A stretch of DNA of 64,000 bases from Escherichia coli (GTDB lineage: Bacteria; Pseudomonadota; Gammaproteobacteria; Enterobacterales; Enterobacteriaceae): the NCBI RefSeq assembly GCF_044324785.1, contig NZ_CP172127.1; one strand, written 5' to 3'. Positions 2,200-29,512 of the stretch are shown piece by piece; the first letter of the stretch is position 1, and the number at the start of each line of letters is the position of its first letter. The translations under genes and the position numbers were made by a program. The notes under the pieces were generated by a model, which did not search any database, was not told the DNA's origin, and saw nothing but the letters and a program-made list of their open reading frames with translations.

Positions 2200-2777
2200 G
2201 TGTTCCCCGCGCCAGCGGGGATAAACCGGGCGTTTCATGCTCATTGTTACCAACCCGCCAGTGTTCCCCGCGCCAGCGGGGATAAACCGCCGATGATCGG
2301 GCTCGGCATTTCGTCGAGGGGGTGTTCCCCGCGCCAGCGGGGATAAACCGGCTTGCAGCAGCTGCGCCAACGTCTGAATATGGTGTTCCCCGCGCCAGCG
2401 GGGATAAACCGATGGTGAGTGGTTGCATATGTGCCTGGCTATCGTGTTCCCCGCGCCAGCGGGGATAAACCGAGGCTATCTATCAGCCATTCTTCATCTA
2501 CTGAGTGTTCCCCGCGCCAGCGGGGATAAACCGGTCTGCTCGTGAGTCCGCGGCGCGAATTGCCGGTGTTCCCCGCGCCAGCGGGGATAAACCGCGAAGC
2601 TCCTTCCGTTGATTACCAAAATGTTGGTGTTCCCCGCGCCAGCGGGGATAAACCGACCGCCCGAACGGCAAAGGGGGCTTCTGGAAGGAGTTCCCCACGT
2701 CAGCGGGGATAAACCGGACACAGAGCGCCGCTATAGCGCCTATGCCAAGAGTTCCCCGCACCAGCGGGAATAAACCA
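2200..2777 (+). CRISPR. Type I-E CRISPR array, 10 repeats / 9 spacers (E. coli CRISPR II locus between queE and ygcE)
   Basis: 29-nt repeat GTGTTCCCCGCGCCAGCGGGGATAAACCG at exact 61-nt period (2200, 2261, ... 2749); 32-nt unique spacers; last two repeats degenerate (GAGTTCCCCACGTCAGCGGGGATAAACCG, GAGTTCCCCGCACCAGCGGGAATAAACCA), marking the leader-distal end. Confidence 0.97.
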
Positions 2778-3231
2778 CCATATAACCCGTTATCTCTTTC
2801 TCAAGTTTTTATATTAGCAGTACTCGTATTAAGCAACATATCCACGTAACACCTCATGTTCAAAATAGTTCTCCATGCCAGAGAAGTTCACAATTATCGA
2901 TACAAAAAATTAAATTTAATCAAAGTGTTATTTGTATGATTCTTAAATCGTTAAGAAATTTTAATCTATTGTTTTTTTAATATTGAATTAATGCCTGTTA
3001 ATTTTTTCTTTAGAATAACAGTGTATTTTTTAAGCTTGTTATTCATTGATTAAGTAATAAATCTGGAAGTTTGTCTTTGTTTTGAGGCTAATGAGTGGTT
3101 TTACATAACCGCCTCTATAGGCTGTTGATGAATAGTTCTTATGAATAAAGATATCCAGTTCATACTTTAAATGAAAATTGATAAAGTACGGTTTGCGTTG
3201 TCTTTTATTCTAAGGACATCGAGTGTAGTTA

Positions 3232-3370
3232 ATATTCCTTGTAACAACAGGGATAAACCGAACTAGTTAAAGTTTTTATTATGTTCCCTGCATCAGCGGG
3301 GATAAACCGGACTTGTTATCATTTTTTAAGTTGTCGAACTTATGTTCCCCGCGTCAGCGGGGATAACCAT
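3232..3370 (+). CRISPR. Decayed mini CRISPR array (3 degenerate repeats)
   Basis: Repeat-like units at 3232-3260 (only 3' half conserved), 3281-3309 (ATGTTCCCTGCATCAGCGGGGATAAACCG) and 3342-3370 (ATGTTCCCCGCGTCAGCGGGGATAACCAT); spacers of 20 and 32 nt; preceded by about 450 bp of AT-rich sequence. Confidence 0.75.
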
Positions 3371-3415
3371 TCAGGTATGTTCAGGCCGGGCAGTTTCCCG
3401 CCCGGTCTTCCTCAC

Positions 3416-4894
3416 TTACGCATTCGACCAGCTCTGGATCGAATCCGCATTCCCCAATTCCCCATGCATCACTTCATACGATTTTTTCAGGATCACATCA
3501 GTGTGCTTGGTTAGGTCTTTGAAAATGCCTTTATTCATCGCGTCGTAGCGTTTGGCGTTGCTCTCAACAGGCATAAAGATATCTTTCACGCGAACCATTT
3601 TGTCGACAGCCGTTGCGTAATCCGGGTATAGCCCCAGACCTACCGCCGTATTAATCGCTGCCCCCAGGCTTGCACAACCATTAATGGCGTTACGGCGTGC
3701 CGGAAGGTTGAACACGTCGGCAAAAATCTGCATAAACAGATCGCTGTTCGAACCGCCGCCAGTAATGATCACATGCTTTGCAAAGTGATTCATTTCATTA
3801 CACATATTGTCGTAATTGTTCTTCAGCGTCAGCGCCACGCTTTCCAGTATCGAACGATATATCCATGCGTAATCCATGCTGGAATCAAAGCCGATCATAA
3901 TCCCGCGTTTGTACGGTTCCCACGGATTGGTCAGCCAGTCCAGCACCGTCATCAGACCATTACAGCCAGGCGGCACACAAGACGCTTTTTTGTTGAGCAA
4001 ATCTTCCGGTGAAAGATCCTGTGCTTTGGCATCCTGAATTAACGACTCGCCTAACATGTCGCGCAGCCAGCTCACTGTCCACATGCCTTTGCGGATACCG
4101 TAACCTTCATACAGCAATGTTTGCGGAATAGAAGACATAATCGGCCAGTACGCTACCGGATCTTTCGGCAGTGCTTTGCCGTTCATCATCAACGCGATGT
4201 AAGTGCCAAGAGAAATTACCGCAGTTTCATCATCCAGTAACCCGGCTCCCAGTGCTTCTACCGGTTTATCACTGGTGGTACAAACAACCGGCAGCCCAGC
4301 CGGGAAATGTGTCGCCAGCGCGGCTTGAGGAGTGATATGCCCAAGAACAGTGCCCGGCATTTGCACATCAAACAGCATATGACGGGGGATATTAAACTTA
4401 TCCATTACCGCAGCCTCTTCGCTCCATGCCCAGGTCTTATAATCCACCGGCCACTGACCAAAATAGTTGGCGATATTGTCTTTAAACTCGCCGGTTAAGC
4501 GATGCGTCAGATAACCCGAAAAAGAGGTGACATATGCCACGTCAGGATTCGTATGTTCGTAAGGGCGTGTAACGCGTGCATCCTGCCAGCTGATCAACGG
4601 TGCAGCTGGCGTGCCATCGGCTTTCAATAACGCACGGCAGCAACGGATGGATCCCAGACCAATACCGACAATATCGTCTTTATTCCCGGCAAACTGACTC
4701 ATCAAATCGTGACCGGCAAAACATAATGATGCCCATAAATCGTCGTCAGGATGTTCTGCAGTATCGGCATCTGGCGTGTGCATCGGCTGCAATAAACCTT
4801 TGCCTTCGCAAACCACGTTACCTTCCAGATCGTACATCACCACTTTTGTGCTCTGACTTCCACCATCAATCCCTATGATGTATTTCTTCGACAT
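3416..4894 (-). CDS. ygcE: FGGY-family carbohydrate kinase
   Basis: 492-aa ORF; N-terminal MSKKYIIGIDGGSQSTKVVMYD typical of the sugar-kinase ATPase fold; matches E. coli YgcE. Confidence 0.9.
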   Translation of the reverse strand: MSKKYIIGIDGGSQSTKVVMYDLEGNVVCEGKGLLQPMHTPDADTAEHPDDDLWASLCFAGHDLMSQFAGNKDDIVGIGLGSIRCCRALLKADGTPAAPLISWQDARVTRPYEHTNPDVAYVTSFSGYLTHRLTGEFKDNIANYFGQWPVDYKTWAWSEEAAVMDKFNIPRHMLFDVQMPGTVLGHITPQAALATHFPAGLPVVCTTSDKPVEALGAGLLDDETAVISLGTYIALMMNGKALPKDPVAYWPIMSSIPQTLLYEGYGIRKGMWTVSWLRDMLGESLIQDAKAQDLSPEDLLNKKASCVPPGCNGLMTVLDWLTNPWEPYKRGIMIGFDSSMDYAWIYRSILESVALTLKNNYDNMCNEMNHFAKHVIITGGGSNSDLFMQIFADVFNLPARRNAINGCASLGAAINTAVGLGLYPDYATAVDKMVRVKDIFMPVESNAKRYDAMNKGIFKDLTKHTDVILKKSYEVMHGELGNADSIQSWSNA

Positions 4895-27505: not shown

Positions 27506-28425
27506 CGTTTGTACCGCTGAGCCCGATCCCATTAAAAGATCGCACTTCCATGATCTTCCTCCAGTACGGTCAAATCGACGTACTGGACGGCGCTTTCGTG
27601 CTGATCGACAAAACCGGGATCCGCACGCATATTCCAGTGGGATCGGTCGCCTGCATTATGCTCGAACCGGGAACAAGAGTTTCCCACGCGGCAGTCCATC
27701 TGGCCGCCACGGTGGGGACGCTACTGGTCTGGGTCGGTGAAGCGGGTGTTCGCGTCTACTCTTCCGGACAACCCGGTGGGGCGCGTGCTGATAAGTTACT
27801 CTACCAGGCAATGCTGGCTTTAACGGAAGATCTACGCCTGAAGGTGGTGCGCAAAATGTATGAATTACGTTTTCGTGAGCCACCGCCAGCTCGCCGTTCA
27901 GTGGAGCAGCTACGGGGAATTGAGGGATCCCGCGTTCGCCAGACCTATGCATTACTGGCGAAACAATATGGTGTGAAATGGAATGGTCGCAAATACGATC
28001 CTAAAGACTGGGAAAAAGGCGATGTTGTCAATCGCTGCATCAGTGCTGCCACATCATGCCTGTACGGTATTTCTGAAGCGGCAGTATTAGCTGCGGGATA
28101 TGCGCCCGCTATTGGTTTTATCCATAGTGGCAAACCGCTTTCATTTGTTTACGACATAGCCGATATCATTAAATTTGATTCGGTTGTACCAAAGGCATTT
28201 GAAATAGCGGCGAGGCAACCCGCAGAACCTGATAAAGAAGTCAGGTTGGCTTGTCGCGATATTTTCCGTAGCTCTAAGTTAACGGGCAAATTAATTCCGT
28301 TAATTGAGGAAGTGCTTGCCGCAGGTGAAATTGAACCACCACAACCCGCGCCGGATATGTTACCGCCAGCCATCCCCGAACCTGAAACGTTGGGCGATAG
28401 CGGTCATCGAGGACGCGGCGGATGA
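27502..28425 (+). CDS. cas1: Cas1 integrase
   Basis: GTG start overlapping casE stop (GTGA); product [27 protein letters not shown]... closely matches K-12 Cas1 as recalled; 307 aa. Confidence 0.9.
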
Positions 28426-28715
28426 GTATGATCGTAGTTGTAACGGAAAATGTTCCTCCACGTTTACGTGGACGGCTCGCTATCTGGCTATTGGAAGTGC
28501 GTGCCGGTGTGTATGTCGGAGATACATCCAAACGTATTCGGGAGATGATCTGGCAGCAAATCTCTCAACTGGCAGGTTGCGGAAATGTAGTGATGGCTTG
28601 GGCGACCAATACCGAGTCAGGTTTTGAATTTCAGACCTGGGGTGAAAATAGACGTATTCCGGTGGATTTGGATGGGTTGCGTTTGGTTTCTTTTCTTCCT
28701 GTTGATAATCAATAA
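28422..28715 (+). CDS. cas2: Cas2
   Basis: 97 aa, [34 protein letters not shown]..., closely matches K-12 Cas2 as recalled; ATGA overlap with cas1. Confidence 0.9.
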
Positions 28716-28811
28716 GTTATCCGTTCTTTAAAAATAAGGAAATGTTTTAATTTAGTTGGTAGATTGTTGATGCGGAATAAATTTGTTTAAAAACAGTTAT
28801 GTATGCTTAGT
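28716..28811 (+). other. AT-rich CRISPR leader
   Basis: Between cas2 and the first repeat; contains ttagttggtagattgt, the same motif as the other array's leader. Confidence 0.7.
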
Positions 28812-29512
28812 GTGTTCCCCGCGCCAGCGGGGATAAACCGTTTCACCGTCGTTCCGTCCGCGCGCTTAGCCTGTGTTCCCCGCGCCAGCGGGGATAAACC
28901 GATTGCGCGGACCGGGCCAGCGCGTCGATTTCTGTGTTCCCCGCGCCAGCGGGGATAAACCGGTGACGACGATCCCAACGCTGCAAAAGGTTAAGTGTTC
29001 CCCGCGCCAGCGGGGATAAACCGCCGTGCTCAATTCAACACCCGACACTGCGCGAGTGTTCCCCGCGCCAGCGGGGATAAACCGTTGTAATTTTGTTCAG
29101 TCTGGCCCATAGCGCGCGTGTTCCCCGCGCCAGCGGGGATAAACCGTTTTGTGAGTATCTTATTTGTCTGGCTCGGTGGTGTTCCCCGCGCCAGCGGGGA
29201 TAAACCGATCTGTTTGCAGATCAACAGGCCCGTAAGGACGTGTTCCCCGCGCCAGCGGGGATAAACCGATAACGCCCGCGCGATCTGGATTATCAGTTAC
29301 GTGTTCCCCGCGCCAGCGGGGATAAACCGCCCGACGGCAGTCGGAGATTAACTATATATGTGTGTTCCCCGCGCCAGCGGGGATAAACCGGGTAAAAACA
29401 CGGTCTGAACCGACATTCATGTGTGTTCCCCGCGTCAGCGGGGATAAACCGGACGCACTGGATGCGATGATGGATATCACTTAGAATTCCCCGCCCCTGC
29501 GGTAGAACTCGC
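28812..29512 (+). CRISPR. Type I-E CRISPR array, 12 repeats / 11 spacers (cas-adjacent, next to iap)
   Basis: Repeats GTGTTCCCCGCGCCAGCGGGGATAAACCG at 28812, 28873, 28934, 28995, 29056, 29118, 29179, 29240, 29301, 29362, 29423, 29484; spacers 32 nt (one of 33); unit 11 has C13T (GCGTCAGC); terminal unit degenerate (GAATTCCCCGCCCCTGCGGTAGAACTCGC). Confidence 0.97.

Follow-up and report, generated by a model that had tools for sequence, protein, structure and literature searches.

The stretch of DNA considered here, 64 kb of the Escherichia coli contig NZ_CP172127.1 (called the window in what follows, with coordinates counted from its first letter), is a chromosomal segment that runs from ygcG/queE to past mutS and has the gene order of strains N3 and K-12. 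It carries an ordinary E. coli CRISPR-Cas region of type I-E with two arrays; its main effector gene, casC, is stopped, and between cas3 and casA lies a small two-repeat element that we call the mini-array and that alone called for closer study. The gene set cas3-cse1-cse2-cas7-cas5-cas6e-cas1-cas2 is complete, and all eight genes were assigned to type I-E by synteny and Pfam families. Their reading frames were checked: on the + strand, cas3 (19822-22521, 899 residues), casA (cse1, 22951-24513), casB (cse2, 24510-25046) and casD, casE, cas1 and cas2 (26127-28715) are all intact, and casC (cas7e, 25061-26116) is a pseudogene with one internal stop.

Array A, that is CRISPR2.3 at the ygcE-queE locus (2200-2777), has 10 repeats, the last two of them variant, and 9 spacers of 32 nt. 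Array B, that is CRISPR2.1, lies after cas2 and next to iap (28812-29512), with 12 repeats, the terminal unit degenerate, and 11 spacers. Both are on the + strand with 26.6 kb between them, and the coordinates bear out the two same-orientation arrays with 9 and 11 spacers given in a preliminary description of the window. Their repeats are 29 nt long with a CCCCGC/GCGGGG hairpin and their spacers 32-33 nt; 20 repeat units stand within three mismatches of the consensus at a 61-nt periodicity (chance expectation 0). Spacer B5 (29085-29117) is of 33 nt instead of 32, and K-12 too has two 33-nt spacers. The names CRISPR2.1, 2.2 and 2.3 and that of the major cas-E variant follow Almendros et al. 2014 (PMC3903273). 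The window shares with that published locus the positions iap-cysH and ygcE-queE, the order of the eight cas genes, the 29-nt repeat, the 32-nt spacers, a hok gene upstream of cas3, leader-distal spacers that are conserved, and, at 0.5 kb from CRISPR2.3, a CRISPR2.2 remnant, here three degenerate units on the + strand (3232-3370, with units at 3232-3260, 3281-3309 and 3342-3370). It differs from the published locus by the premature casC stop and by a rare 430-bp gap between cas3 and casA.

In this gap the preliminary description had seen an orphan repeat. This was a misreading, since the repeat lies on the minus strand and is part of a CRISPR RNA (crRNA)-like mini-array with two repeats. The unit in question, PsiR2 (cTGTTCCCCGCGTCAGCGGGGATAAgCCc, 22547-22575, running 22575->22547), runs opposite to both arrays and agrees with the repeat at 25 of 29 positions (19 of the first 21), with the hairpin, predicted to be of 7 bp, intact. 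A second and degenerate unit, PsiR1 (CAGTTCCCTGTCTAAGGGATTAACCA, 22608-22633, running 22633->22608), stands exactly 32 nt away; although reduced to 26 nt, it keeps AGTTCCC, a 5-bp hairpin and, at the place of the 5' handle ATAAACCG, the handle-like ATTAACCA, which agrees with it at 6 of 8 positions. The 32 nt between them form a pseudo-spacer, PsiS (AGTTAGTGATACACGTATATCATTTTATGCTC, 22576-22607, minus strand). Read along the minus strand from 22633 to 22547, the order is PsiR1-PsiS-PsiR2 with a spacing of exactly 26+32+29 nt, that is two repeat-like units around one spacer-like sequence in a cas intergenic region, with no leader. A GC-rich 11-bp hairpin (22525-22550), terminator-like in look but devoid of a T-run, comes directly after the cas3 stop and, on the minus strand, follows the mini-array. 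In the predicted fold of the minus-strand RNA, the hairpins of both repeats form together with this terminal one (z = -7.5). An extended -10 element, TGATATAAA (minus strand, 22648->22640), read by eye, would start transcription at PsiR1. A deletion scar of a same-orientation array was also considered for the PsiR2 repeat and was ruled out by its inversion.

The pseudo-spacer has a predicted target 79 bp away on the + strand (22683-22717), made of an AAG protospacer-adjacent motif (PAM, 22683-22685) and a protospacer at 22686-22717. PsiS matches 22686-22702 by 15 pairs, at positions 1-17 except 6 and 12. Positions 6 and 12 of the guide are those that Cascade, the CRISPR-associated complex for antiviral defence, flips out. 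In the 64 kb the second-best seed-anchored match of PsiS has 8 pairs and lacks a PAM, and 15 pairs were not attained by any of 5000 shuffled versions of PsiS. The pair TTGAAA-17-TACTTT (22722-22750, +) begins 4 bp after the end of the target; we read it by eye from an alignment, the consensus scan did not report it, and we take it as the likely casA promoter. An open reading frame (ORF) of 18 codons, MSGSRVEKPFDKEYFGFY (22706-22762, +), has its start inside the target; it could be due to chance, a leader peptide or a small toxin. In a diverged variant of the region, from strain BEC1-S17-ESBL-09 (BEC1-S17), an ORF of equal length starts from the conserved ATGTCCGGA and encodes a different peptide.

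We infer from this arrangement that the mini-array would be transcribed and processed into a crRNA-like RNA of the CreR type, which in Cascade would bind the AAG-flanked partial match just upstream of the likely casA promoter. The expected outcome would be repression of the Cascade operon rather than cutting, because the match between guide and target is too short to license Cas3. With the mini-array, the Cas complex would probably be able to silence its own promoter.

The BEC1-S17 form has the same layout, although its intergenic region has strongly diverged around the element. Its pseudo-spacer, of 26 nt (AGTTAGTGAGATACTAAAATTGGTTC), pairs at 18 positions with AGTTATTGAGAAACTAAAATT, preceded by an ATG PAM, and relative to the window the two partners, guide and target, have changed in concert at positions 10, 15 and 16 of the pseudo-spacer. 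The PsiR2 stem is kept, its innermost pair being C-G in the window and U-A in BEC1-S17, and the candidate casA promoter is conserved as TTGAGT-17-TATTTT.

Regulatory mini-arrays between cas3 and cas8e have been described in I-E loci, those of E. coli included (Shmakov et al. 2023, PMC10120712), and the Salmonella I-E CreR, which has a 15-nt match beside an AAG upstream of casA, was shown to act through the Cascade of E. coli as a repressor of PcasA (Liu et al. 2023, bioRxiv 10.1101/2023.03.10.532045). Judged by its sequence, the element of the window is a member of this already described class. As in the published cases (PMC10120712; bioRxiv 10.1101/2023.03.10.532045), it sits between cas3 and casA on the strand opposite to cas3, places two repeat-like units around one spacer-like sequence, keeps the 5' handle in its upstream unit and the hairpin in its downstream unit, and has a seed-anchored partial match with an AAG PAM and mismatches every sixth position, adjoining a predicted casA promoter. 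Its pseudo-spacer starts with AGT whereas the tested Salmonella element starts with TAG, its target lies about 265 bp upstream of casA compared with about 140 bp in Salmonella, and its pseudo-spacer has the full length of 32 nt, in contrast to the 26 nt of the BEC1-S17 variant. Unlike the described elements, it has the better-preserved repeat downstream and sits in a host with a broken Cascade. Two pattern scans of species-representative genomes returned no relevant further variant of the mini-array, one metagenome scan returned a single true copy, identical to that of the window, together with six chance matches, and a search for phage-encoded mimics returned only repeat matches in mis-deposited records.

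Among 5,426 complete genomes, the 430-bp form of the window was found in two and the BEC1-S17 form in seven, that is nine genomes with the long form, while some 2,430 that share the cas type, O157:H7 and O111:H8 included, have a 97-bp cas3-casA gap without mini-array. This short form lacks the hairpin, the mini-array, the target and the AT-rich (30% GC) region of window positions 22522-22950. K-12 has a mini-array of its own at the same place, with a sequence unrelated to that of the window. It is possible, and we propose it only tentatively, that the major I-E variant originally had a CreR-type autorepression loop, made up of the mini-array together with its target and a casA promoter dedicated to it, and that more than 99% of the loci lost them all in one deletion of about 330 bp.

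Several observations weigh against a regulatory role of the mini-array. PsiR1 has only 26 nt and a 5-bp stem, which makes its processing by Cas6e on the 5' side uncertain. The consensus promoter scan found none upstream of PsiR1, its sole minus-strand candidate lying inside the mini-array. The covariation rests on only two diverged variants, and the pseudo-spacer/target match of K-12 is weak, with 7 contiguous pairs. Finally, the mini-array is missing from the roughly 2,430 genomes of the same cas type and the element is therefore dispensable. A rival reading is that of a decayed and functionless CRISPR relic, an inverted repeat pair that would at most end cas3 transcription together with the adjacent hairpin. 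In its favour, the region is absent from about 99% of the E. coli that have this cas type, no promoter of the mini-array passed the scan, and on the + strand the cas3 stop is followed by two strong hairpins in succession (z = -4.3); no T-run comes after these, however, and no terminator was called in the scan. A relic moreover leaves unexplained why a match that has a PAM and is anchored in the seed leaves out just positions 6 and 12, and this match was kept by paired changes though the surrounding intergenic sequence strongly diverged; the repeat-spacer-repeat spacing, too, is exact. We therefore judge this explanation unlikely, and retain the reading of the mini-array as a probable CreR-type regulator.

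The two arrays share a leader motif, GTTGGTAGATTGT, located at -57..-45 from the first repeat in array A (2143-2155, +) and in array B (28755-28767, +), and found exactly twice in the 64 kb for a chance expectation of 0.02. The leader of K-12 CRISPR2.3 has the identical 13-mer, and that of its cas-adjacent CRISPR2.1, otherwise divergent, has GTTGGTGGGTTGT at the same -57..-45. In the four aligned leaders, K-12 included, 11 of the 13 positions are invariant. Type I-E leaders conserve a site for integration host factor (IHF, -9..-35) and a second box at -44..-59, within which the anchoring site of the Cas1-Cas2 integrase was mapped to -50..-53 (Yoganand et al. 2017, PMC5224486). The 13-mer of the window falls in this second box, and the anchoring site reads GTAG in the window and GTGG in K-12. 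From its position and conservation, the motif is best read as a signal at which the adaptation machinery common to both arrays docks: the same Cas1-Cas2 integrase, with bending induced by IHF, would dock at -57..-45 to insert spacers at the first repeat, and we propose that both arrays carry the box because this integrase must dock there. The preliminary description was thus right that both leaders carry the motif, but as a mark of ancestry it is less well explained than as a conserved functional signal, because the divergent K-12 leader has its counterpart at the same place. All four leaders also have a second conserved block further upstream, CTTTAAnAnnAnGGAnnTGT, at about -97 to -75 (window 2103-2125 and 28723-28745).

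The same description had listed a repeat variant with T instead of C at position 13 (T13, GCGTCAGC) at unit 11 of array B (29423-29451, +), at remnant unit 3342-3370 and in the cas3-casA gap. We confirmed it at these three sites and found it additionally in array A unit 9 (2688-2716, +), a variant repeat that carries both A10 and T13, and in the remnant unit 3281-3309. The T13 units of the window are all leader-distal or degenerate. From the sequence and its predicted folds, the change at position 13 concerns the tetraloop's second base (GCCA or GUCA) and leaves the stem as it is. The remnant T13 units (3281 and 3342) are identical in K-12, and the T13 repeat before the last array B spacer is common to N3 and BEC1-S17, K-12 having one further change there. 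The array of BEC1-S17 has nine leader-proximal T13 repeats, then two C13 and then T13, so that T13 is the repeat being actively copied there, and strain 06-00048 has C13 at the unit homologous to the old T13 unit. The leader-proximal repeat is the template for new repeats, so old states would survive at the far end of an array. We thus take T13 to be a recurrent loop change, without effect on the hairpin, that switched back and forth in the history of E. coli.

Of the shared ancestry or gene conversion suggested for T13 in the preliminary description, the first part stands for old units kept by descent, and nothing requires the second. That conversion or recombination within the genome made array B, the CRISPR2.2 remnant and the cas3-casA copy alike at this position appears improbable. 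The same 8-mer does occur at three loci up to 26 kb apart, but these share no flanking sequence, and the cas3-casA copy is inverted and carries further differences; repeat-mediated recombination does happen, N3 having lost spacers B2-B8 between two repeats, but each T13 unit stands at the same place in distant strains and is therefore old and vertically inherited. Besides, position 13 flips inside single arrays, as in the nine T, two C and one T of BEC1-S17, and homoplasy is expected. Identity at a tetraloop base that flipped repeatedly is weak evidence for either ancestry or conversion, and the pattern of T13 reads as mostly retention by descent, the rest being recurrent C/T change, with no need of conversion.

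The spacer targets had been left unknown, and a comparison with phage and plasmid databases, with a check of the PAM, had been proposed. The 20 spacers, joined by Ns, were searched against phage, plasmid and E. coli genome sequences and then in eight IMG/VR scans. Targets were obtained for 7 of the 20 spacers, 13 being still without one, and all seven are of temperate elements, namely two types of myovirus/prophage, the tail gene of a prophage, and phage-plasmids like P7/P1. The first myovirus type, exemplified by a prophage in strain N1420 and a contig from IMG/VR, is matched by A3 and B3 in its tail-fibre gene (32/32 each) and by B4 elsewhere on the same contig (31/32), all three with an ATG PAM. 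The second, exemplified by a STEC384 prophage and an IMG/VR contig with 87-91% identity between them, is matched by A7 (31/32, AAG) and B2 (31/32, GTG), at sites adjoining or lying within the tape-measure gene. The match of A4 is to the tail-tip gene of a prophage (29/32, ACG), and B10 matches P7, SJ46 and about a hundred P1-like plasmids (32/32, CTG). The target genes are those for the tail fibre, the tape measure and the neighbourhood of the sheath, and at A3, B3, B4 and A7 the ATG or AAG stands on the spacer-identical strand. Spacers from both arrays converge on the same two temperate myoviruses, and they would record encounters with temperate phages, which fits the recent view of E. coli CRISPR as mainly recording prophages.

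This part of the reading is weakened by the PAMs that are not canonical (CTG at B10, GTG at B2 and, for the weakest match, ACG at A4), by the seed mismatches in the 29/32 match of A4, and by the 13 spacers without a target. In the B10 site, P1 has a proper ATG but four mismatches, seed position 4 among them, as opposed to the CTG of P7 and SJ46; this looks like what escape from an old spacer by two routes would leave. The IMG/VR scans, with every sixth base left free, gave no match for A1, A2, B1, A5, A6 and B5; they did not take in A8, A9, B6-B9 and B11. A full-text search for six spacer sequences found none of them in published spacer tables. The matches listed in the plasmid search were those of B10 on P1-like plasmids, plus B10 and B11 on mislabelled chromosomes. 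E. coli spacers have been reported to target mostly prophages, with P1 and SJ46 among the most-matched phages (ISME J 2024, PMC10910852). In agreement with that study, the seven targets found here are all temperate phage, prophage or phage-plasmid, and P1-like elements (P1, P7, SJ46) are matched by the widely shared B10; 35% of the spacers of the window have a target, compared with 60% in PMC10910852, where cohort metagenomes were searched too.

Counted over the 5,426 complete genomes, the oldest spacers of array B, B10 and B11, are present in the arrays of about 4,279, and A9 in several dozen, strain 042 among them. Unlike loci of the PMC3903273 type at large, the window has spacers that are nearly private: 18 of the 20 are absent from almost all complete genomes, and only N3 shares 10 spacers, namely A4-A9 plus B1, B9, B10 and B11; apart from such sharing, the remaining spacers have no counterpart in this collection. 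Between A7 and A8, array A of N3 carries two further spacers, which are absent from the window. Its cas-adjacent array reads B1-B9-B10-B11, with B2-B8 lost and a second repeat of 28 nt after a one-base deletion. From this pattern of sharing, array B of N3 is a deletion derivative of that of the window, and, as deduced from the spacer order, the two lineages have each gained three different spacers in array A, and none in array B, since they split.

The preliminary description had also noted a disrupted casC. The lesion is a single nonsense codon, GAA->TAA at codon 83 (25307-25309), with no other lesion in the gene and the remaining cas genes intact. A frameshift or an insertion sequence (IS) interrupting casC was ruled out, a point nonsense mutation being read. 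The stop was found in both assemblies that were read directly (21 further similar places were listed) and is therefore not a sequencing error. The draft assembly GCA_014748805.1 is 100% identical to the window over 22.7 kb, and GCA_053151395.1 differs by one base and an IS insertion. Among complete RefSeq E. coli genomes the best identity to the cas region is 96-98%, none exceeding 98%, and casC is intact in a strain whose Cas3 protein is identical and whose array B differs. An origin of the window in Shigella or another species was considered in view of these identities and rejected because of the fully identical E. coli draft, so that the sequence stands for a real lineage of E. coli.

In the lineage of the window, Cas7 is thus cut short at residue 82. 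Cas7 forms the backbone of Cascade in type I-E, so the stop would remove this backbone, and interference, primed adaptation and CreR-guided repression should therefore be lost, while Cas1 and Cas2 are intact. It is plausible that the death of casC lets prophage-matching spacers persist without cost. No self-target for any spacer was found when matches outside the arrays were sought in the 64-kb window, and in N3, the closest complete genome, which has an intact casC, the spacers common with the window have no off-array match.

The casC stop also bears on the last and least probable explanation, a very doubtful one, in which the mini-array is the antitoxin half of a CreTA-type module and its target controls a small toxin, for example the ORF at 22706-22762, instead of or besides casA: CreA/CreT modules do sit in cas intergenic regions of other type I systems (bioRxiv 10.1101/2023.03.10.532045), and both diverged variants have an ORF of 18 codons, counted from the conserved ATGTCCGGA, with its start inside the target, but its peptide is poorly conserved, its ribosome-binding site is not evident, the Salmonella I-E element has no associated toxin (bioRxiv 10.1101/2023.03.10.532045), and the casC-null lineage, without functional Cas7, persists in many assemblies, which argues against the guarding of a lethal toxin, even if silencing by H-NS could mask it.

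A few neighbouring features may be mentioned. A gene of the Hok/Gef family (50 residues, 19475-19627, +) lies between cysH and cas3, and in the sister assembly an IS (DDE_Tnp_1, 370 residues) stands directly downstream of it. A pair of 26-nt direct repeats, GGnCTTGTAnGCCTGATAAGACGCGT, at 11910-11935 (after ygcQ) and 18413-18438 (after cysI), resembles palindromes of the repetitive extragenic palindromic (REP) type. A 24-nt tandem repeat of 2.7 copies (38596-38660), in the region syntenic to nlpD, is probably the repeat-rich linker of that gene.

Taken as a whole, we consider it probable that this is an ordinary type I-E locus with a functional leader box, a recurrent T13 loop change and spacers against temperate phages, in which a CreR-type mini-array would control casA and the casC stop would abolish both this control and interference. 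The arrays, the leader box and the loop polymorphism bring no new knowledge on E. coli CRISPR. Two points are of modest value, one being the convergence of spacers from both arrays on two myoviruses and the other the mini-array: the co-evolution of guide and target in two diverged E. coli variants provides sequence-level support, drawn from natural variation, for a class so far tested only with the Salmonella element, and the casC-null lineage offers a ready-made control strain. If the major I-E variant did once have the loop, the loss of about 330 bp would rewire Cascade expression in most E. coli, and the lineage of the window would be among the few to have retained the loop, only to break it later by the casC stop; it would then serve as an experiment of nature in which the loop proves not to be tied to a lethal toxin. 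The loss of such a regulator in nearly all E. coli of the same cas type would then bear on the apparent silence of the system in this species.

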